Assembly (NCBI RefSeq): GCF_004010195.1
Contig: NC_057719.1
Coordinates: forward strand, 21,040,979-21,104,978
Reading direction: 5' to 3'
Length of the DNA stretch: 64,000 nucleotides
Source: Chiloscyllium plagiosum
Lineage: Eukaryota
In this document: in pieces, positions 2,815-58,608 of the stretch
Numbering within the stretch: the first letter of the stretch is position 1
How the letters are laid out: each line of letters opens with the position of its first letter
Notes under the pieces: generated by a model
The model's database searches: none
Seen by the model: only the letters and a program-made list of their open reading frames with translations
What the model was told of the DNA's origin: nothing
Program-made: the position numbers and the translations under genes

Positions 2815-2848
2815 TTCCTGAAGAAGGGCTTATGCCCGAAACGTCGAT
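2815..2848 (+). ncRNA. Minimal type-I hammerhead ribozyme (family A)
   Basis: CUGAAGA-A-GGGC-uuau-GCCC-GAAA-CG-UC; intact core. Confidence 0.85.
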
Positions 2849-2941
2849 TCTCCTGCACCTTGGATGCTGCCTGACCTGCTGCGCTTTTCCAGCAACACAT
2901 TTTTCAGCTCTGATCTCCAGCATCTGCAGTCCTCACTTTCT
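2818..2941 (+). mobile_element. PLE family A mini-element (pLTR 3' end with tail)
   Basis: Matches the 3' end of GIY-YIG-bearing PLE copies (5221, 52840); imperfect TSD cataattaccttcc 2805-2818 / cataattgctttcc 2942-2955. Confidence 0.85.
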
Positions 2942-8090: not shown

Positions 8091-9375
8091 TTAATTAGGA
8101 AATGTAGGTTATTCTGGCCTTCGAATTGTTCTGTAATTCAATAAAATCTTGGCTGATTGGCTTATATTTCAAATCTCTCATTCCCATCTACACTGATAAC
8201 TTTGATTCACTGCCAAACAAAAATGCATCGACTATCACCTTCAAAATATTCAATGTCCCTGCCTTCCTGGGGCAGAGAGTTCCAAAGTCATACAACCCTC
8301 TGAGAAAAAAAAACCTTCTCATCTCTATCCCGAAAAGGTGCCTCCCAATTTTTAATCCCAGTTCTGTACTCACACAAGAAGATACATCACTTCCATGAGT
8401 CATCCTGCCAAGACAGTTCAGAATCTTATATATTTCAATGAACTAGCCAACAGTTTTATAAACAGCATTGAATACCAGCCTACTCCATCCAACCTTTCCT
8501 CAAAACATAACCCACACATTGCCATCCTTCATTGAATAAGGAAAGCAAATCTACATGAAATATTCAAGAAGTGGTCTCAACAAACCCTACAAAACTGAAG
8601 CATAATGTCCATAAGTTAAATTTCAAACCTAAGTTAAATTTTTCTCGTATTAAAAAATAGTATTCCATTAACATTTTGATTAGATACTGTGCCTGAATGC
8701 TAATTTATTTGTAAATTTAGATACCATTCCTTTGCTAACCTTATTTAAGTCACTCATATCAATTATAAAAGATTTGAGGCCCTAGCACAGTCAATTGCAA
8801 GACCTATTTGTCAGATCCCACTAATCACAGCAGGATCCATTTGTGCATTCTGTCTTTTTTCTGATGGCCAGTCAAACTTCTATCCATATTAATATGTTCC
8901 CTCCTCGCTCATGTACTTCAACCTTGTGCAATAACATTTTATGTGGCAGCTTGACTTCTGGAAATTCAAGTACAGTCTGACAATAGGCTTCCCCTGTCCA
9001 CGGTGCATATTGATTTTTCAAAGAACAACAAAAAATTGGTTAAAGGTTATTTACCTTTCGTAAAACATGCTCACTCTTCCCAATTACCATGAATGTTTCT
9101 ACCTTGTCGAGCTATAACCTTCTTAATGTTCCATTCCTTGACAGATATCACACTAACTGAACTATGGTTTACGGTTTCTTACATCCTTCCATTATTAAAT
9201 GTAGAGTCATGTTTGCAAATATTAGTCTCGTCTTTTCCAGAATCTGGCATACTTTGGAAAATTTATATCTACACCTCTACTATCTCATTAGCTACCTCTT
9301 TTAAGATTCTAGAATGAAGTCTGTCAGGATTGAATGTCTTGCATCCAGCAGCTCCATCTGTTTGCTCAGTATTGT

Positions 9376-9409
9376 TTCCTGAAGAAGGGCCTGTGCCCGA
9401 AACGTCGAA
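9376..9409 (+). ncRNA. Minimal type-I hammerhead ribozyme (family A)
   Basis: uuc-CUGAAGA-A-GGGC-cugu-GCCC-GAAA-CG-UC-gaa; stem I uuc/gaa. Confidence 0.88.
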
Positions 9410-9503
9410 TCTCCTGTTCCCTGGATGCTGCCTGACCTGCTGTGCTGTTCCAGCAATAAAGTTTCAACTTTGATCTCCAGCATCTGCAGACCTCACTTTC
9501 TCC
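9379..9503 (+). mobile_element. PLE family A mini-element, 125 bp
   Basis: Perfect 12-bp TSD cagtattgtttc 9367-9378 / 9504-9515; insert begins at CTGAAGA. Confidence 0.92.
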
Positions 9504-9877
9504 CAGTATTGTTTCATTAATGATTGTAATTTCACCAAGTTCTTCTAGTCCTTCCACATTTTGATTTAAAGCTATTATTCCGAGTTTGTCTCCTCTATCA
9601 CAGAGACAAGAGCTTAGCTTAGTATTTGCTAATTTCTTCCATTATTTCCTTCTTATTAACCCATTATTTCCTAACTGTTAACTCTCATTTCTCACCGACT
9701 AGAGGACAAAAATTAAAATTAATTGCTGTGTAAATGCCTGTAAAAACATTTGATGTCCACTTTGACATTTTGAGTTAGCTTCCTCTCATTAATTAACTTT
9801 TTCCTCCTTGTATTTTCATAAAAACGTTTGAAGGGAATCGATTGCTGTAAATGATATTGGGGTATCCTGACAACATG

Positions 9878-10267: not shown

Positions 10268-10306
10268 GCAAGCGTTTCGTCCCTGGCTAAGCGACATCAT
10301 CAGTGC
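10268..10306 (-). ncRNA. Hammerhead motif (family B), cleavage-site U mutated to C
   Basis: Reverse complement gca-CUGAUGA-U-GUC...GAC-GAAA-CG-CU-ugc. Confidence 0.7.
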
Positions 10307-10853: not shown

Positions 10854-10893
10854 GCACTGATGATGTCGCCTAGCCAGGGGACGAAACGTTTGC
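10854..10893 (+). ncRNA. Minimal type-I hammerhead ribozyme (family B)
   Basis: gca-CUGAUGA-U-GUC-g-CCU-agcc-AGG-g-GAC-GAAA-CG-UU-ugc; stem I gca/ugc. Confidence 0.88.
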
Positions 10894-10943: not shown

Positions 10944-11063
10944 GATGATGAAGAAGCAGCGCTCTGAAAGCTAGTGCTTCCAATTAAACTTGTTGGACTA
11001 TAACCTGGTGTGGTGTGATTTTTAACTTTGTACACTCCAGCCCAACACTGGCATCTCCAAATC
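10944..11063 (+). mobile_element. PLE family C mini-fragment (decayed hammerhead to tail)
   Basis: tgatgaagaagcagcgctctgaaagctagtg..cactggcatctccaaatc, matching the pLTR at 31588-31672. Confidence 0.85.
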
Positions 11064-20025: not shown

Positions 20026-22247
20026 AATCAGGAGCTGAAATTGGTCTGTCGCAAAGATGTCACTACAGTTGTTATGTGGGATTTTAACATGCAGGCAGAC
20101 TGAGAGAATCAGGATGGTACTGGGTCACAAGAAAGAGACTTTGTGGAGTGCCTCAGGGATGGATTCTTTGAGCAGCTGGTGCTGGAGCCGACCAGGTAGA
20201 AGGCAATTCTGGATCTGGTATTGTGTAATGAACCAAAATTGATCAGAGACCTCGAAGTGAAGGAGCCATTAGGAAGTAGTGACCATAATACATTAAGCTT
20301 CAATCTGCAATTTGAGAGGGAGAGGGTACAGTCGGAAGTGACAGTACTTCTGTTGAATAAAGGGAACTATGGAGCTATGAGGGAGGAGCTGGCCAAAGTT
20401 CAATGGTGCAATACCTTAGCAGGGATGACCGTGGAGGAACAATGGCGGATATTTCTGTGTATAATGCAGAAGTTGCAGGATCAGTTCATTCCTGAAAGGA
20501 AGAAAGATCAAAGGAGGAGGCATGAACGGCTGTGGCTGACGACGGAAGTTAAGAAACATATAAAGTTAAAAGAGCAAAAGTATAACATAGCAAAGATAAG
20601 TGGGAAAACTGAGGACTGGGAGGCTTTTAAAAAGCAACAGAGGATTACTAAGAAGGAAATACGCAGAGGAAAAATGAGGTACGAAGGTAAACTGGCCAAT
20701 AATATAAAGGAGGATAGTAAGACCTTTTTTAGGGATGTGCAAGGCAAAAAAATGGTTAGGACTAAAATTGGGCCCTTGAAGACAGAAACAGGGGAATATA
20801 TTACGGGGAACAAAGAAATGGCAGAAGAATTAAATGGGTACTTCAGATTTATGTTCACTGGGGAAGACACAAGCAATCTCCCTGAGGTAACAGTGGCTGA
20901 AGGACCTAAACGTAAGGGAATTTATATTTGCCAGGATTTGGTGTTGGAGAGACTGTTAGGTCTGAAGGTTGATAAGTCTCTGGGGCCTGATGGTCTGCAT
21001 CCCAGGGTACTGAAGGAGGTGGCTCGGGAAATCGTGGATGCGTTGGTGATTATTTTCCAGAGTTCCATAGATTCGGGGTCGGTTCCTGAGGATTTGAGGG
21101 TGGCTAATGTTATACCACTTTGTAAGAAAGGTGGGAGAGAGAAAGCAGGAAATTATAGACCAGTTAGTTTGACCTCAGTGGTGGGAAAGATGCTGGAGTC
21201 TATTATAAAGGATGAAATTATGGCACCGCTGAATAGTAGCAACAGGATAGGTCAGAGTCAGCGTGGATTTATGAAGGGGAAATCATGCTTGACTAACCTT
21301 CTGGAATTTTTTGAGGATGTAACTCTGAAGATGGACGAGGGAGATCCAGTAGATGTAGTATACCTGGACTTTCAGAAACCTTTTGATAAAGTCCCACACA
21401 GGAGGTTAGTGAGTAAAATTAGGGCAAAGTACTAGATTGGATTGAAAATTGGTTGGCTAATAGGAAACAAAGAGTAGTGATAAACGGCTCCATTTCGGAA
21501 TGGCAGGCAGTGACCAGTGGGGTACCGCAGGGATCCGTGCTGGGACCACAGCTTTTTACAAAATATGTTGATGATATAGAAGATGGTATCGGCAATAACA
21601 TTAGCATATTTGCTGATAATACAAATCTGGGTGGCAGGGTGAAATGTGAGGAGGATGTTAGGAGATTACAGGGTGACCAGGACAAGTTAGGTGAGTGGGC
21701 AGTTGCATGGCAGATGCAGTATAATGAGGATAAATGTATGGTTATCCACTTTGGTGGCAAGAACAGGAAGGCAGATTACTACCTCAATGGAATCAATTTA
21801 GGTAAAGGNNNNNNNNNNNNNNNNNNNNNNNNNNNNNNNNNNNNNNNNNNNNNNNNNNNNNNNNNNNNNNNNNNNNNNNNNNNNNNNNNNNNNNNNNNNN
21901 NNNNNNNNNNNNNNNNNNNNNNNNNNNNNNNNNNNNNNNNNNNNNNNNNNNNNNNNNNNNNNNNNNNNNNNNNNNNNNNNNNNNNNNNNNNNNNNNNNNN
22001 NNNNNNNNNNNNNNNNNNNNNNNNNNNNNNNNNNNNNNNNNNNNNNNNNNNNNNNNNNNNNNNNNNNNNNNNNAGAAACTTCTTCATCCAGAGAGTGGTG
22101 GCTGTGTGGAATGCTCTGTCCCAGAGGGCAGTGGAGGCCCAGCCTCTGGATTGGGCCTCTCTGGATTCATTTAAGAAAGAGTTGGATAGAGCTCTCAAGG
22201 ATAGTGGAATCAAGGGTTATGGAGATAAGGCAGGAACAGGATACTGA
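20026..22247 (+). pseudogene. CR1 ORF2 (APE endonuclease end + reverse transcriptase), disrupted
   Basis: [45 protein letters not shown]; stops near 20100/20197 and a deletion/frameshift at ~21430. Confidence 0.9.
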
Positions 22248-29949: not shown

Positions 29950-31098
29950 AATATGCCAACATCTTTATGCACAGGTTCGAACAAGACCTCTTCTCTATGC
30001 AGGATCTCCAACCAACATTATACACCAGGTACATTGATGACATTTCCTTCCTCTGGACCCATGGCGAGGAGTCACTGATAAAACTACACAGTGACATCGA
30101 CAAGTTTCATCCCACCATCAAACTCACCATGGACTACTCTTGACTATCTGTCTTATTCTTGGACACATACATCTCCATCAAGGATGGACACCTTAGCACC
30201 ACACTCTACCGCAAACCCACAGACAACCTCACAATGCTACACTTCTCCAGCTTCCACCCAAAACATATTAAAACAGCCATTCCATATGGACAAGCCCTAC
30301 GCGTACACCGGATCTGCTCAGATGAGGAGGAACATGACGGGCACCTGGAAGTACTGAGGGATGCCCTCACAAGAACAGGGTGTGTTGCTCAACTCATTGA
30401 CCTCCAGTTCCGATGTGCCCCAGCAAGGAACTGTAATGACCTCCTCAAGAGACAGACACGTGCTGCAACCAACAGGGTACCCTTCATTGTTCAGTATTTC
30501 CCAGGAGCTGAAATACTGCGCCATGTTCTTCGTGACCTGCAACACATTATCGATAAGGATGAGCATCTCGCCAAGACCTTCCCCACACCTCCACGGCTTG
30601 CCTTTAAACAACCATAAAACCTCAAACAGATAGTTGTTCGTAGCAAGCTGCCTGGCTTTCAGGACAACTACATACAATCCTGTCATGGTAGGCGCTGCAA
30701 GACGTGTCAGAGTGTGGACATAGATACCACCATTACATGTGGGGACACCTCCCACCATGTACATGGCAGGTACTCATGTGATTCAGCCAAGTTGTCTATC
30801 TTATACGTTGCAGGCAAGGATGCCCTGAGGCATGGTACATTGGGGAAACTGAGCAAAGGCTATGGCAACGGATGAATGGGCACTGCACAACAATCAACAG
30901 ACAGGAATATTCCCTCCCAGTTGGGGAACAATTCGATGGTCCAGGACATTTGACCTCAGACCTTCGGGTGACCATCCTCCAAGGCGGACTTCGGGACAGG
31001 CAGCAGTGAAAAGTCGCCGAGCAGAGGCTGATAGCTAACTTCCATACCCATAGGGAGGGTCTCAACTGGGACCTTGGGTTCATGTCACACTACAGGTG
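29950..31098 (+). pseudogene. PLE RT C-half + CxxC linker + GIY-YIG endonuclease, disrupted
   Basis: YTRYIDDI, FLDTYI, LYRKPTD, AIPYGQALR, CHGRRCKTC, VYLIRC..WYIGET. Confidence 0.9.
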
Positions 31099-31112
31099 AC
31101 CACCATTGCACT

Positions 31113-31290
31113 ATACACACACACACACAGACCCTCCTATTGACACACATACACATGGACACACATATACACAGACATGCACACAAACACTCACACACAC
31201 ACCCTTACAGACACACATACTCCCACACTCACACAGGCATCCTCTCAGAGGCTTAGACCATTCTACACTCATGCACACGCATATACACTC
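31113..31290 (+). repeat. Degenerate (CA)n tract within the PLE family C 3' region
   Basis: cacacacacacacag..acacacatac runs. Confidence 0.8.
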
Positions 31291-31583
31291 TCTTTTTTAG
31301 ATTAGAATCAATCTAAACATCATGGCATAGACAGAGAACACAGGGGGCTAACACCTTCAACATATTGTCTAGCTAACACCAATTGTTACAGCTAACCTGA
31401 GAATTCAACTTTTTTATAAAAAAGGTTTGTGATTTACACATGAAAGATGTGAAACTATGATGGTATTCGAACAGATGAAAGACTCAACAGACAATCAAGG
31501 TATTTTTCAGTGTATAATTTCAGTTACATCACACTGTAAATTTTTGTTATAAATTCTGTGCCTTACAATTGTGGTCTCCACAA

Positions 31584-31620
31584 TCACCTGATGAAGGAGC
31601 GTCGCTCCGAAAGCTAGTGA
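31584..31620 (+). ncRNA. Minimal type-I hammerhead ribozyme (family C)
   Basis: ucac-CUGAUGA-A-GGAGC-guc-GCUCC-GAAA-GC-UA-guga; perfect stems I and II. Confidence 0.9.
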
Positions 31621-31689
31621 GCTTCCAATTAAACCTGTTGGATTATCACCTGGTGTTGTGTGATTTTTAACTTAAATGAATAGAGGTTT

Positions 31690-33545
31690 CAGCTTCTATT
31701 ACTAACTTAGGCAGTGAGTTCCAGAACCCTACTACTCATAATACCTTAATAATCCTCATCTCCATTCTAATTTTCCTAATAATCTCTTTAACTCTGTGAC
31801 CCCTGGACACTGGCCTCTTTGCTAAAATAGACCCTTCCCATTCACTCTGTCCAGCTCAGTCACAATGTTGTACTTCTCAATGAAATCGTTTCTCAAGCCT
31901 CCTCTGCTCCTGGAAGAGTAACACCAACTATCCAATCAGAGCTGCAATTTTCCAGTCTTAGCAACTACTCATAAATCTTCCTGTACTCTCCCCAGTGTAA
32001 TTATAATCTTTCTGCATTGAAGTGACTAAGATTGTACATAGATTTCAAGTTCTGGCCTATCTAATGATTTATAGAGTTCCAGTAGATCCCCTTTCGTTGC
32101 TATATTCAATATCACAGTTAGAACATAGAACATAGAACATAGAACAATACAGCACAGAACAGGCCCTTCGGCCCACGATGTTGTGCCGAACTTCTAACCT
32201 AGATTAAGTACCCATCCATGTACCTATCCAAATGCCGCTTAAAGGTCGCCAATGATTCCGACTCTACCACACCCACGGGCAGCGCATTCCATGCCCCCAC
32301 CACTCTCTGGGTAAAGAACCCACCCCTGACATCTCCCCTATACCTTCCACCCTTCACCTTAAATTTATGTCCCCTTGTAACACTCTGTTGTACCCGGGGA
32401 AAAAGTCTCTGTCTACTCTATCTCTTCCCCTGATCATCTTATAAACCTCTATCAAGTCACCCCTCATCCTTCGCCGTTCCAACGAGAAAAGGCCGAGAAC
32501 TCTCAACCTATCCTCGTACGACTTCCTCTCCATTCCAGGCAACATCCTGGTAAATCTTCTCTGCACCCTCTCCAAAGCATCCACTTCCTTTTGGTAATGT
32601 GGTGACCAGAACCATACGCAGTATTCCAAATGTGGCCGAACCAAAGTCNNNNNNNNNNNNNNNNNNNNNNNNNNNNNNNNNNNNNNNNNNNNNNNNNNNN
32701 NNNNNNNNNNNNNNNNNNNNNNNNNNNNNNNNNNNNNNNNNNNNNNNNNNNNNNNNNNNNNNNNNNNNNNNNNNNNNNNNNNNNNNNNNNNNNNNNNNNN
32801 NNNNNNNNNNNNNNNNNNNNNNNNNNNNNNNNNNNNNNNNNNNNNNNNNNNNNNNNNNNNNNNNNNNNNNNNNNNNNNNNNNNNNNNNNNNNNNNNNNNN
32901 NNNNNNNNNNNNNNNNNNNNNNNNNNNNNNNNNNNNNNNNNNNNNNNNNNNNNNNNNNNNNNNNNNNNNNNNNNNNNAATTCCTAATCCAAAACTCCAAC
33001 TCACCCTCAATGCCATACCTCCGTATTTTTGAAGTAGCCTACCATGGGGAACCTTATCAAATGCCTTACTGAAATCCATGTACACTACATCCACTGCTCT
33101 TCCCTCATCCACATGCTTGGTCACCTCCTCGAAGAATTCAATAAGACTTGTAAGGCAAGACCTACCCTTCACAAATCCGTGCTGGCTGTCCCTTATCAAG
33201 TTAATGAAGGAAAGGTTCCATATGCCTTCTTAGCCACATTATTGACCTATCCTGCTAACCCCAGAGACATCCAAGGATCCTCATCTCCTCCACACCTCTC
33301 AACATTCTCCCAGTTATTGTTGTCTTGTGAGACGTACTCAAGTGGATCATCTCACACTTCCACAGGTTGAATCCAGTTTAAAACTTTTCTCAGAGATCAA
33401 GTTTCTTGATATCTTGTTGTGGCCTACAGCTATCCGGTCAACCATGTGGTCAATTTTTGTGACGTCAGAAGCTTCTTGATCATGCCCCCTACATTTACTT
33501 CCAAGTTGTTAACATATACCACAAATAGAACAGGACTGCTATTGA
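31690..33545 (-). mobile_element. Old CR1 (pieces ~31690-32118 and ~33200-33545) hosting a younger CR1
   Basis: Decayed RT/3' sequence continuous across the younger insert. Confidence 0.6.
32120..33198 (-). mobile_element. Young 5'-truncated CR1 with (tatgttc)n tail; spans a gap
   Basis: QHGFVKGRSCLT, YMDFSKAFDKV, LVRPHLEYC; agaacatagaacatag tail. Confidence 0.9.
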
Positions 33546-35299: not shown

Positions 35300-38200
35300 A
35301 AGGTTATGGACATGTCGGCAATTTGCCATGTGTTGATCGGAGGAATGAACTACACAGAAAGCTCACTGAAGTAAAAACTATCAAAAATGGCAAAAGCTGG
35401 CCAACTACCAAATGCCTCAGAGGCGACAAGAAGAAACCGCATAAATGTGATGATTGTCCAACAGGTGGAGCTGAATGCTACAACTACACTCAAAAAATGT
35501 TCTCATTCCAAAACAGCATTCAGTGGCAGTAACAGCCAACACATTCATAAAATGCAATTAGATCCAGAAAAATGGGAGAATCACAGTCACAGAAGGTGGA
35601 CCTGTTCTGTCCTGAAGAAAAGTCATACCAGACTTGAAATGTTAATTTGGTTTCTTTCTCCCCAGATCTGTTGAGTGTCTCCAATAGTCTGTGTTTGTTG
35701 GGAATAGTCAGATCTGTGTGGATCTGACCCAACTCACAAAGCAGTACAACTGAAATCCATCCAAAGTCATTAGTGATGATATCCTAGCTAATTGACAGAG
35801 TACATTGTTCCCAAAATTAGATGCTAATAACGAATTTTGGCAAGCAGCTTTGGATCAGGGATCAAGGTTGCTAACTATTTTTATAATACCTTATGGTTGT
35901 TATTGCCTCAACAGACTACCCTTTGGCATAGCATCTGTGCCTGAAATATTCCAGAGGACTTTGCTCAACATATTGCGAGAGAAGGATGGAATAATATGCC
36001 ATATGGATGATATCTAATGCATGGTTCCACAAAGGAGAAGCATAATTGTAGATTATGGGAAGTTATGAGAGCATTCCAAGATGCTGGACTAACATAAATG
36101 ACTAATGTGATTTTGCAAAACATATGATCAAATTCTAAAGTTACAAAGTATGGTCTAGAGTAATAACAGATGATCCTCAGAGAACAAAACTATTAGGAAA
36201 TTTCTGCAAACCAGGAACTTAAGAGAGTGAAAAAAACGCTAAGGATAACAAACCTAGTTAGTCAATTCATACGTAAATTGTAAGCAGTTAGCAAACCATA
36301 TGAACATACAAACTCAGAGCAGGATTAGATCATTTGGTCTTTGAACCAGTTCTGTTATTCAACAAGAACATGGTTGATCTGATTTTCCAATTTTTTATCT
36401 CTCTGTGATAATCCTTCACCGCCTTTGTTTATTAAGGATCTATCTACTTCGGCCTTCTGAAGATTCAAAGACTCTGCCTCCATCTTTTGAGAAAGAGTGT
36501 TCTAAACACTCACAGCCCACTGTGAGAGAAAAGACATTCTGTCTCCACTTTGTTTGAACATATTGACAAACCATCGAGGACACTGTTGAGATAAGGCCAG
36601 AGTGCCACTGGAATTACAATCAGAGAAAGCACTAGGAATTTGTTAACTTCAATTCCAACATTATTTATACATTATGACCCATTATTATTAACTGTAATCG
36701 CTATAAGTGTAGCATTCACAGGTTGTTTACATATGATAAATGCAGGAAGATAGAAAACAAAGGGTTGTTAATCATGCTGCGAAGTCTCTATCAAAAACAG
36801 AGAAAAGTTACTTTACAATCGCAAAAGAAGCACTGGTCACGATGTGCAAGAAATTCTCTGACCTGGGTGATAATGCAAGATTGAAATAAATCACAAACTA
36901 TTGATTACTTTTCTCAACGTGCAGGAAATTGCAAAGATGCTGCCTTACATTCAGTGATCCCAATTATGCTGGATGATGCACAATTCAATCACGAGAACTA
37001 CAAGAGAACTGTCAATCAACAGCAAATAATTAGGGTCGCATAGTTGCTTAGTAGTTAGCACTGTTGCCTCACAGGTACCCTGGTTCAATTCCACCTCAAG
37101 TGACTGTCTATTTGGAGTTTGCACATTCCCGCCATGTCTAACCGTTTTTCTTCTAGGTGCTCTGGTCTCCTCAAGATGCTCTAATTAAGTAGGTTGGCCA
37201 TGCTAAATTGCCCATAGTGTCCAGGGATTTATAATTAGGTGGACTAGCTTTGGGAAATACAGGTCAAGGTAGGGGGTTGGGTTTGGGTCAGATGGTCTTC
37301 AGAGGATCGATGTGGACCCGACGGGCCAATTCTATGAATGTATTAAGTCTACCACTAGAAGAAGTTGAAAACAAGATTTGGAGTTAATTAGGATTGTTAC
37401 TTGAACTGCATTCAGAAATGTTCACAACATCAGGTCCAAAAACCTTATGAGCATTAGATTTTTTAAAAATTGGAAGAGGTTTGAGGACCTCACAATAGTG
37501 ATGAAAAATGTGTCAATGTTAAAGGATATAACCAGGATGGATAGCCAGCATTTTCCACAGGTTCACCATAATAAGACCACCTCTATTGAATAATGAAAGC
37601 ATCTGATGATTCCAGATGACTTATTAGTCATTGATATAAGTTGGTGATGGCTAAACAACTCAAAGTGCTCCAAAAATACATGAAGGTCATCTCAGAATAT
37701 TAACATCTTGTACAAGCACCCAACAATCAATTTCAGGGACTACCCATTTGATTGAGAAATTATATTCAATTGTCAAATTGGTGCTATCAACAACAGGAAC
37801 AGAGAAAAAAAACTTGTACTATTGCCATCAAGGACCTTGGTATAGACTAGGAATAGGCTTATTTGAGTGTAATAGAAAAATATTTGTCAGCATTATCAAA
37901 TATTATTCAAAGGAGAATTTTTGAATTAATGGTACAGATTCACAATGGACACAGTGATAAAATCATCAAAACAAATCTATTCACCTCATGTACTGCTGAC
38001 CTGGTTGCATCCAACAACAGACCACAATTCACAAAGGAGCAATGTAGAGACTATGACAAAGAATCTGGCATGTGGTCAGTTCCCCTTGTTACCCACAAGC
38101 AAACAGTGAAGCACAAAGAAAAGTCAAAACTACAAAAGGAATCCTAATGAAAATAAAGAAAGATATTAATTCTGCCCTGTTTAATCAATGCCATTGTAAA

Positions 38201-50952: not shown

Positions 50953-51861
50953 TTGATAGCATTGTTTAACAAGGGTGGTAAGGACAAGCTAGGGAACTAT
51001 AGACCAGTGAGCCTGACCTCGGTGGTGGGCAAGTTGTTGGAGGGAATCCTAAGGGAGAGGATGTACATGTATTTGGAAAGTCAAGGACTGATTAAGGATA
51101 GTCAACATGGCTTTGTGTGTGGGAAATCATATCTCACAAACTTGACTGAGTTTTTTGAACAAGTAACTAAGAGGACTGATGAGGGCAGAGCGGTAGATGT
51201 GATCTATATGGACTTCAGTAAGGAGTTCTTGGAACTCATGGAATACAGGGAGAACGAACCATTTGGATACAGAACTGGCTCAAAGTTAGAAGACAGAGGG
51301 TGGTGGTGGAGGGTTGTTTTTTAGACTGGAGGCCTGTGAGCAGTGGAGAGCCACAAGGGTTGGTGCTGGGTCCACTACTTTTTGACATTTACATAAATGA
51401 TTTGGATGCGAGCATAAGAGGTACAGTTAGTAAGTTTGCAGATGACACCAAAATGGGAGGTGTTGTGGACAGCGAAGAGGGTTACCTCAGTTTACAACAG
51501 GATCTGGACCAGATGGGCCAATGGGCTGAAAAGTGGGAGATGGAGTTTAATTCCGATAAATGCGAGGTGCTGCATTTTGGGAAAGCAAATCTTAGCAGGA
51601 CTTATACACTTAATGGTAAGGTCCTAGGGAGTGTTGCTGAACAAAGAGACCTTGGAGTGCAGGTTCATAGCTCCTTGAAAGTGGAGTTGCAGGTAGATAG
51701 GATCGTGAAGAAGGCATTTGGTATGCTCTCTTTTGTTGGTCAGAGTATTGAGTACAGGATTTGGGAGGTCATGTTGCAGCTGTACAGGACATTGGTTAGG
51801 CCACTATTGGAATATTGTGTGCAATTCTGGTCTCCTTCCTATCGGAAAGATGTTGTGAAAC
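50953..51861 (+). mobile_element. CR1 ORF2 RT fragment with internal deletion, runs into a gap
   Basis: NYRPVSLTS, YMDFSK, PQGLVLGP, FADDTK, LVRPLLEYC. Confidence 0.9.
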
Positions 51862-52644: not shown

Positions 52645-52968
52645 TTCTCAGTCCCAACCCTCGGACTCAGCACCGCCTTCTTGACCTGTAATCTTCTTCC
52701 CGACCTCTCCACCCCCCCCCCCTCTCCGGCCTATCACCCTCACCCTCACCTCCTTCCACCTATCGTATTCCTAGTGCCCCTCCCCCAAATCCCCTCTCCC
52801 TTACCTTTTATCTCAGTCCACCTGGCACACCAGCCTCATTCCTGAAGAAGGATTTATGCCCAAAACGTCGATTCTCCTGCTCCTCGGATGCTGCCTGGCC
52901 TGCTGTGTTTTTCCAGCATCACATTTTTCAACTCTGGTCTCCAGCATCTGCAGTCCTCACTTTCTCCT
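52645..52968 (+). mobile_element. PLE family A pLTR with tail; decayed hammerhead ~52842-52869
   Basis: Same sequence as 5086-5312 and 2818-2941. Confidence 0.88.
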
Positions 52969-55189: not shown

Positions 55190-55347
55190 AGAGAAAGTGA
55201 GGTCTGCAGATGCTGGAGATCAGAGATGGAAATGTGTTGCTGGAGAAGCGCAGCAGGTCAGGCAGCATCTAGGGAACAGGAGAATCGACGTTTCGGGCAT
55301 TAGCCCTTCTTCAGGAATGAGGAAAGTTTGTCCAGCAGGCTAAGAAG
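55190..55347 (-). mobile_element. PLE family A short insertion
   Basis: 9-bp TSD aagactgga 55181-55189 / 55348-55356. Confidence 0.9.
55283..55318 (-). ncRNA. Minimal type-I hammerhead ribozyme (family A)
   Basis: Reverse complement auuc-CUGAAGA-A-GGGC-uaau-GCCC-GAAA-CG-UC-gauu. Confidence 0.88.
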
Positions 55348-56245: not shown

Positions 56246-56370
56246 GGCGAAAGTGAGTTCTGCAGATGCTGGAGATTAGAGCCAAGAGTGTGGTGCTGGA
56301 AAGACAGAGTAGGTCAGGCAGTATATAAGGAGCAGGAAAATCGGCGTTTCAGGAAGAAGACCTTCATCAG
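56246..56370 (-). mobile_element. PLE family A mini-element, 125 bp
   Basis: TSD aaaaaaacacag 56234-56245 / aaaaaaccacag 56371-56382; the insert's 5' end is CTGATGA. Confidence 0.85.
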
Positions 56371-57739: not shown

Positions 57740-57895
57740 TTCTGGATTAGTGGTGCTGGAAGAGCACAGCAGTTCAGGCAGCATCCGAGGAGCAGTAAAA
57801 TCGACGTTTCAGGCAAAAGCCCTTCATCAGGATGCTCTTGCAGCACCACTAATCCAGAATCTGGTTTCCAGCATCTGCAGTCATTGTTTTTACCT
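57740..57895. mobile_element. PLE family A fold-back mini-insertion
   Basis: ttctggattagtggtgctg is inverted to cagcaccactaatccagaa; 14-bp TSD agatgtgaaccaag 57726-57739 / agatgtggaccaag 57896-57909. Confidence 0.9.
57800..57833 (-). ncRNA. Minimal type-I hammerhead ribozyme (family A)
   Basis: Reverse complement auc-CUGAUGA-A-GGGC-uuuu-GCCU-GAAA-CG-UC-gau. Confidence 0.82.
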
Positions 57896-58390
57896 AGATG
57901 TGGACCAAGAGCAGGAAGAAGGATTTAGTTTAATTTGGCATCATGCTCAGCACAACACCATAGGCTGAAGGGCCTATTCCTGTGCTGTACTATGTTCTAT
58001 GTTCTATACGCTTCCTCAAGTATTGAGAGAGAAAAAAAACTGCATTCAATGCTCCAGGATAATCCTTACCTGCGTAATTTTCATAAACTGGGACAGAAAA
58101 TGCTGGAAATCAATAATAGAGTGGTTTTCTTGCTGGGGACAGATAAGGGATAAAGTGGATTCCACAGCCTTCAGATGTGGATTGGAGGTGACCAAAAAGG
58201 TAGCCAGATAGCGAGGTGGGTTATTTCAAAAGTCTGAAACTTCACCCTACCATTTTCTTATGTTTTATGCCCTCTACCTTTTTTCCTTCACACCCAGCAC
58301 AACACCTCCATGTGACCTCCAAGTCATTAGAAAAACTTGATGTGGTGTTTTTTTTATGAAAAGCAGTTTCACAGATACTGTTGCTACTGT

Positions 58391-58608
58391 CAAAAAGTGT
58401 GACGCTGGAAAAGCACAGCAAGTCAGGCAGTATCTGAGGAGCAGGAAAGTCGACGTTTCCAGCATAAGCTCTTAATCAGGAAGGGCTTCATTCTCAAAAC
58501 GTCAATTCTCCTGCTCCTCGGATACTACCTGACCTGCTTGCTTTTTCAAGCGCCACACTTATCAACTCTGACTCTCCAGCATTTGCAGTCCTCACTTTCC
58601 CCTAACCA
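58391..58608. mobile_element. PLE family A fold-back insertion, inversion point at the hammerhead
   Basis: Arms ~58396-58480 (-) and ~58480-58560 (+); TSD-like ttgctactgt 58381-58390 / ttgttactgt 58609-58618. Confidence 0.82.

Follow-up and report, generated by a model that had tools for sequence, protein, structure and literature searches.

Neptune-type PLE copies in the window

The window, by which we mean the whole stretch of 64,000 nucleotides of the Chiloscyllium plagiosum genome (contig NC_057719.1) that was analysed, contains several short copies, hereafter termed stubs, which on sequence comparison are the 3′ part of the pLTR of a Neptune-type Penelope-like element (PLE) and not a new element. 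Their coordinates and those of related features are compiled in Table 1; positions within the element are given relative to C3 of the hammerhead motif CUGAnGA, which is set to 0 and corresponds to 9379 in the main copy, and statements on published systems are drawn from excerpts of the papers cited. The hammerhead core was assigned by motif against the min-HHR description in PMC4209133, stem II being also present in the computed fold, and an Rfam search of the window returned no hammerhead match.

Table 1. Coordinates and strand of PLE-derived features in the window
Feature	Position	Strand	Remarks
Left TSD, 12 bp	9367..9378	+	last three bases, TTC at 9376-9378, also match native -3 to -1 of the element
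Stub, putative run-off product, Neptune-type PLE pLTR, subfamily e	9379..9503	+	no difference over 125 of 125 positions from long, tandem or ORF-linked copies
Minimal type I hammerhead core	9379..9406	+	CUGAAGA 9379-9385, stem II 9387-9398, GAAA 9399-9402; cleavage predicted to follow 9406
Optional tail between the two 3′ ends (about +90 and about +125), putative RT start sites	9469..9503	+	3′ end histogram; PMC11167929 (excerpts)
Right TSD	9504..9515	+	pairs with 9367..9378
Second stub, subfamily a3, start -3	2815..2941	+	9-bp TSD, one mismatch: 2805-2813 / 2942-2950
Third, older stub, start 0	56246..56370	-	candidate T-rich 12-bp TSD, one mismatch
Longer copy to -33	55190..55347	-	9-bp TSD; in the minority passing the boundary
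Long family A copy	52705..52967	+	TTTTATC box about 52806-52812, 30-32 nt before boundary A 52838
Head-to-head pair	57740..57895	.	the first arm runs to about -2 and its partner begins at about +64
Head-to-head pair	58390..58605	.	arms meet at -3 and +5 with common GAA
Second Neptune family, C	30001..31673	+	broken RT, CxxxxCxxC linker (30690-30710), GIY-YIG, CA-rich UTR, pLTR
Family C pLTR signals	TATAAAT 31548-31554; predicted start A 31580; hammerhead C3 31588	+	

The first-pass annotation had described three family A copies (9379-9503, 2818-2941 and 56246-56370), each flanked by its own TSD and each starting exactly at C3. The three are homologous and have a common tail end, but an exact start at C3 did not hold, as the copy at 2818 retains the TTC so that its real start is 2815, and the genome-wide mode lies at -4/-3, -4 being the A of ATTC 4 nt before C3. 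The TSD of the main copy is perfect over 12 bp, that of the copy at 2818 extends over 9 bp with one mismatch, and the copy ending at 56370 has only a weak candidate. Pairwise identity among the three is only 76-87%, and they represent three subfamilies rather than one young family. The strand switch near the core was seen at about -2/-3 in both inversions (about 57831 and about 58480), and among short pieces of other families, that of family C at 10945 begins at about +1, while those at 35612, 59462 and 63065 are compatible with such a start and too decayed for a base-level call. At 58415-58540 Rfam gave a weak match to mir-196; it corresponds to the hairpin of a head-to-head PLE pair, and such pairs would yield long RNA hairpins inside host transcripts. 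Much of the window is filled by fragments of another RT-bearing LINE (20200-21435, 21423-22247, 32354-33229 and 51222-51860), which we take from its motifs to be CR1/L2-like.

The parent element was traced among copies elsewhere in the genome. A GIY-YIG motif lies in frame upstream of stub sequence in locus L051, and a CX4CxxC linker, of the CX2-5CxxC type described for Neptune in PMC8557442, is present in L282 as well as in family C of the window. Pfam matches to RVT_1 (E 1.5e-5, L156) and GIY-YIG (E 8.6e-4, L158) were both below Pfam's cut-off, and two short fragments gave no Pfam match. The copies display the anatomy of a pLTR, with a minimal type I hammerhead (by motif), an optional tail, an inverted 5′ copy and a TSD, and they fall into at least five subfamilies, one succeeding another. 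A total of 573 exact matches run past the tail into the leader and the ORF, the ATG of which is at +162, and the main stub is letter for letter the pLTR of ORF-linked copies. The passage from pLTR to ORF start is seen in L281 and L282, the middle of the element being absent or in N gaps, and no intact full-length family A copy (pLTR-ORF-pLTR) was recovered among the fetched loci, in which assembly N gaps lie inside long or inverted copies. Such gaps are frequent in these copies (L106, L110, L141-L160), so that long copies are undercounted or broken in the assembly. L145 was rejected as a full element starting at -4, its 5′ piece being a separate TSD-flanked pair. The leader between hammerhead and ORF ATG (L245, about 1415-1535; window 9425-9503, inside the stub) contains upstream ATGs, and a possible 3′ splice site is formed at about +131 by an AG that closes a pyrimidine tract; introns are common in PLE leaders. 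The N-terminal region of the ORF in L282 (reverse strand) carries tandem 12-residue proline-rich repeats reaching an assembly gap.

A sharp 5′ boundary across the genome

Exact patterns were counted over the whole 3.56-Gb assembly, and about 1.9 Mb was fetched as 352 loci (L-numbers). A 38-nt core has 27,158 exact matches genome-wide, a number that drops to 16,036 when the 4 native bases upstream are required and to 7,927 when 8 are; as 22 of 25 long copies keep the 8 upstream bases intact, this drop reflects truncation and not decay. The 5′ ends were then placed for 95 young exact-core copies from loci around the first listed core matches (about 90 of the 100 listed), and 64 of them fall in -6 to 0, 4 in -10 to -7 and none in -30 to -11, the remainder ending in -100 to -31 (12 copies), farther upstream (7) or at a gap or edge (8). 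The 68 copies ending in -10 to 0 compare with 10% expected at the background truncation rate (binomial p 4e-45), and the boundary is thus a sharp peak, as the first-pass annotation had supposed, and not a smooth 5′ truncation. Since the exact-core set is blind to ends inside the core, 117 copies were collected by the 3′ part alone (strict seed), whereupon 44 ended in -6 to 0 with a mode at -4/-3, and 19 in +1 to +10, 17 of these being partner arms of inverted pairs. Just one of the 117 starts at the predicted hammerhead cut (+28), which bears out the earlier statement that self-cleavage does not set the boundary. Reads and contigs of other samples (independent runs) exhibit the same step with junctions at -4, one of them with a single G between. 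An apparent 5′ peak at +45 was traced to a cross-match with the old family O, and splicing was rejected as the source of the boundary, there being no AG before -4 and no peak at the AG at -27/-26. The boundary is therefore real and lies 4 nt before C3, at the A of ATTC.

The 3′ ends of simple copies also cluster, at about +90 (26/55) and about +125 (28/55), so that the size of about 125 bp previously regarded as discrete does occur but is one of two. These clusters match the two internal reverse-transcription start sites that define the tail of the Anolis Poseidon element PAc in vitro (PMC11167929), and we read them as putative RT starts. Of 105 peak copies, 50 are one arm of a head-to-head pair within a 13-17-bp TSD, with no target DNA at the junction. 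Inverted junctions were counted within the fetched loci, where family A pairs combine a long with a short arm in 32 of 37 cases, the other five having a long and an unclassified arm, and neither two long nor two short arms were found together; family C pairs are long plus short in all 16 cases with both arms classified, and three more were unclassifiable. In composite copies an end at -4, with a G in some of them, adjoins ORF-side sequence at points between about +170 and +535, and another pLTR follows upstream (L226, L230, L231, L236, L240, L242-L244 and L281), in at least L242 inside one TSD; on this structure we regard the composites as template jumps from the RNA end, and the boundary as a reverse-transcription stop and template-jump site, which is part of one of the two options of the first-pass annotation, is upheld.

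An additional base is frequent at the boundary. The native base at -5 is C, and 5,033 matches carry another base there; in the first 100 of these listed, a hand count gave 68 G, 18 A and 14 T before ATTC, as compared to an expected 27% G (p 7e-18), a p value somewhat inflated because, among the 100, single insertions in some cases contributed both of their arms. In the 95-copy set a G precedes the boundary in 11 of 15 copies at -5, 2 of 16 at -4 and 2 of 10 at -3, the 7 of 15 at -2 reflecting one recurring inverted junction. Seventy G junctions were resolved into a lone extra base (8), a filler end (29), a base shared with the partner (28) and unresolved cases (5), so that in 37 of the 70 neither the target nor the partner arm is the source of the G. 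In eight head-to-head loci chosen for this feature (L288-L295) both arms end in G with a short filler between. In family C, a hand count of the first 100 of 791 listed non-native matches gave 87 G, 5 A and 8 T before A(-8). A jump onto the product of cleavage as the source of the G (GAUUC at +28 resembling G+AUUC) was rejected as inapplicable to family C, which is richer in G. An extra G marks capping in full-length L1-made insertions (PMC11702581), and here it points to a physical, probably capped, RNA end, an option that the first-pass annotation had not raised. The fillers between arms at the L288, L294 and L295 junctions are iterated short copies of arm ends. We presume that these resemble products of polymerase-theta end joining.

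The position of the boundary was compared with that of upstream promoter-like motifs, with Inr and TATA consensus sequences used for comparison. Family A has an AT-rich box, TTTTATC, which is a poor TATA match; in all 24 'a' copies and in 6 of 7 'b' copies its TTATC is placed at -30 relative to the boundary A(-4), and in older family A copies the box, where found, is 28-33 nt before A(-4). The TCATTC at the family A boundary fits, in our estimation, the initiator consensus. Family C has a canonical TATAAAT at -38 in 9 of 10 long copies and at -40 in one, from which a start at A(-8) was predicted prior to counting, and 19 of 30 family C loci have a junction at -9 to 0, with 10 long copies and one ending near -25. 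The old family O has TATAAA followed by TCAGTT at the same spacing in few copies, its decayed stubs often beginning with AGTT or GTT. The boundary thus moves with the box from -4 in family A to -8 in family C, and so follows the box and not the ribozyme, suggesting a start site 4-8 nt before C3 and about 30 nt behind an upstream AT-rich box. The Poseidon-like family B has TATAAA at -53, which 13 of 20 rows keep, and little pile-up at the core. Family B is present in the window at 10303 (- strand) and 10857 (+ strand), with a hammerhead and TATAAA 53 nt upstream, most copies keeping the box and passing the core; the family C copy at 10945 directly abuts the (AAT)n end of the family B copy at 10857.

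Origin of the boundary

We consider it probable, at about three chances in four, that the boundary is a capped transcription start and that reverse transcription begins at internal sites (+90 and +125) and runs off the cap, the stubs then being likely run-off cDNAs which reached the capped start of the element RNA. By this mechanism Pol II would start at A(-4), about 30 nt past the AT-rich box, giving a transcript that opens with helix I of the ribozyme, and the element protein would bind the leader just downstream and nick both target strands 13-17 bp apart. Reverse transcription would be primed at the internal sites near +90 and +125, once at each, as for Anolis Poseidon in vitro, where both strands are extended by a predicted dimer and downstream RNA is needed (PMC11167929). 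Priming in the pLTR at the front of the RNA would leave 94-130 nt to be copied, upon which the enzyme would run off the end and copy the cap as C, and the cDNA end would join the target (a simple stub) or a second cDNA (a head-to-head pair), or would jump along the RNA (a tandem composite). As stubs lack the upstream box, and lack the downstream leader that PAc needs in vitro, they are likely to be dead ends. The one-long-one-short arm rule, if so read, provides genomic support for two-site priming, so far seen only in vitro, and allows specific and cheap tests.

Certain observations count against the cap reading. The G could arise by cap-independent C-tailing at any RNA end, 28 of the 70 G junctions share it with the partner, and the family A box, to judge by its letters, is a poor candidate TATA element. 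Family B shows little core pile-up, and Penelope of D. virilis, to go by the published excerpts, is arranged differently, so that the layout is not general. In a single-cell polyA run there was no pile of read starts at the boundary, this library being unsuited to such a signal and its reads mirroring the genomic copies.

It is improbable that the boundary is instead an RNA end made after transcription, by an unknown nuclease cut or at a branch point, to which the reverse transcriptase adds C without a cap. Such an end accounts for the sharp stop and the untemplated base, and the reads examined, though of an unsuited polyA library, gave no start pile and hence no sign of a capped end; yet such an end gives no account of the spacing of about 30 nt behind an AT-rich box, which families A, C and O have in common despite different sequences around the end. 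The CUCAU at -7 to -3 presumably resembles a branch-point motif, but no such motif lies at -8 in family C.

Rather less probable is a stall of the reverse transcriptase at the ribozyme fold or at a bound protein, with the RNA extending farther upstream, a possibility raised by the first-pass annotation in the form of a stop imposed by the fold. The stop adjoins helix I in family A and the ribozyme is protein-assisted in vitro (PMC11167929), but the ribozyme region of family A folds no better than shuffled sequences (z 0.05 and -0.35), the stop lies behind the ribozyme in the direction of RT travel, and in family C it is at -8, where helix I has only about 3 bp, the boundary following the TATA-position box instead of the fold. 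Moreover, a stall gives no reason for the G.

The other proposal of the first-pass annotation, a self-propagating, non-autonomous 125-bp unit (a SINE or retrozyme monomer) with its own lineage, is largely refuted and is now a very unlikely explanation. Its appeal lies in the very high copy number, the TSDs and the discrete length, and true tandem derivatives which may feed some stubs do exist in the genome (one junction at 39 places listed). Nevertheless, on a tree of 56 long-tailed copies, 22 of them short, built on 122 columns with few supported forks and with the main stub left out by an identity filter, short, long and inverted copies were mixed, with 17 label changes against 17.6 for shuffled labels, and stubs match the long copies of each subfamily. 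From the absence of a short-copy clade and this identity we conclude that stubs are, as judged from their relationships, remade by each subfamily and form no separate lineage. The 5′ ends are furthermore scattered over -6 to 0 and the 3′ ends over two sites, and in place of the tandem units and cleavage-set ends of retrozymes the stubs are single or head-to-head with one hammerhead each and start 28-32 nt before the cut. A 224-bp tandem unit (-20 to +204) of the same subfamily as the main stub recurs with one junction across many contigs (L301-L312; 39 places listed); it retains the leader and is a real non-LTR-retrozyme-like lineage. Other tandem units recur in L221, L247 and L250, with 194-bp units in L311, where the array starts at about -4.

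Finally, that microhomology between target sites (an ATT or TTC preference) and the ATTC or TTC before the core produces the peak hardly merits credence, for although TTC closes the TSD of the main copy, an overlap of 1-4 bases with the target is common at simple junctions and PAc prefers ATT in vitro (PMC11167929), inverted arms, which have no target DNA at the junction, make up about half of the peak copies, the TSDs of inverted pairs have no ATT/AAT excess (15/41 against a background of 43%) and little TTC/GAA excess (21/41 against 42%), and family C peaks on a different sequence. Microhomology shapes the scatter over -4 to 0 and is refuted as the sole cause.

Returning to the capped start, a further and more tentative proposition, which we hold to be possible and on balance doubtful, is that target-primed strong-stop cDNA is the normal first step of PLE copying, the dimer priming at +90 and +125 in the 5′ pLTR, running to the cap and normally transferring to the identical stretch of the 3′ pLTR, from where copying would proceed into the body. 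A possible scar of such strand transfer (G at -5 with native sequence upstream) was present in one of 70 G junctions (L345), which could be an ordinary mutation, and in none of the 22 long copies (of 25) with 8 intact upstream bases. If true, the transfer would account by one mechanism for the regeneration of pLTRs, for partial tandems and inverted ends and, through mis-transfers to the leader, for the birth of retrozymes; stubs would be integrated failed transfers, and their tens of thousands a fossil map of the start site.

Comparison with known systems and implications

The anatomy of PLEs, including pLTR hammerheads, dispersed minimal hammerheads, tails and inverted copies, is already on record (PMC4209133, PMC8557442, PMC3846280, PMC2377424, PMC7761336 and bioRxiv 10.64898/2026.07.22.740005). 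Neptune EN+ PLEs (PMC8557442, PMC3846280) have, as here, an RT with a C-terminal GIY-YIG and a CX2-5CxxC linker, a minimal hammerhead in the pLTR, heavy 5′ truncation, an adjacent inverted copy, an optional 30-40-bp tail and TSDs; truncation is frequent in those accounts, whereas its concentration at one base, the extra G and the long/short arm rule are, with respect to the excerpts, features of the present copies only. PAc of Anolis carolinensis (PMC11167929) likewise has two internal RT starts defining the tail, with extension of both target strands and a predicted dimer, and does not need hammerhead cleavage; it differs in that it was studied in vitro with T7 RNA, the consulted portion of the main text giving no start site, cap or genomic 5′-end peak, and in that its ORF starts inside the ribozyme and not at +162. 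Non-LTR retrozymes (bioRxiv 10.64898/2026.07.22.740005; PMC7761336) resemble stubs in being ORF-less and PLE-derived with a type I hammerhead, dispersed monomers being common, but differ, going by the excerpts, in having tandem units with a hammerhead each, from which processing at the cut site yields circles; stubs, by contrast, occur singly, are not bounded by the cut site and have no lineage of their own, and the 224-bp tandem unit fits the definition better. Full-length L1-made insertions (PMC11702581) arise, as is proposed for the stubs, by run-off at the RNA 5′ end with an extra G. Penelope of D. virilis (PMC2377424, PMC4209133) has its start in the pLTR upstream of the hammerhead, as is proposed here, but differs in its TATA-less internal promoter and in that 46 bp separate the start from a 75-bp intron, the end of which is at helix I. 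The proposed product may also be set beside those of another class of retroelements. The minus-strand strong-stop DNA of LTR elements is a short cDNA made from an internal primer near the RNA 5′ end; here, by contrast, priming would be by nicked target DNA, so that the short product integrates.

In literature searches and in excerpts of the papers cited, no PLE 5′-end peak, cap G or arm rule was found. The stubs constitute a product class that is real and, it appears, undescribed, although the element itself is known, and they make testable a mechanism which is still open, the copying of PLEs and the role of the hammerhead being stated as open questions in PMC8557442 and PMC7761336. If the boundary is a cap, DNA alone would have sufficed to place the start sites in two or three families at base resolution. 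The ribozyme would then lie within the leading 35 nt of the mRNA, so that its cleavage there would take off the cap, and a simple origin would be at hand for the 'dispersed minimal hammerheads' that animal genomes contain in their thousands.
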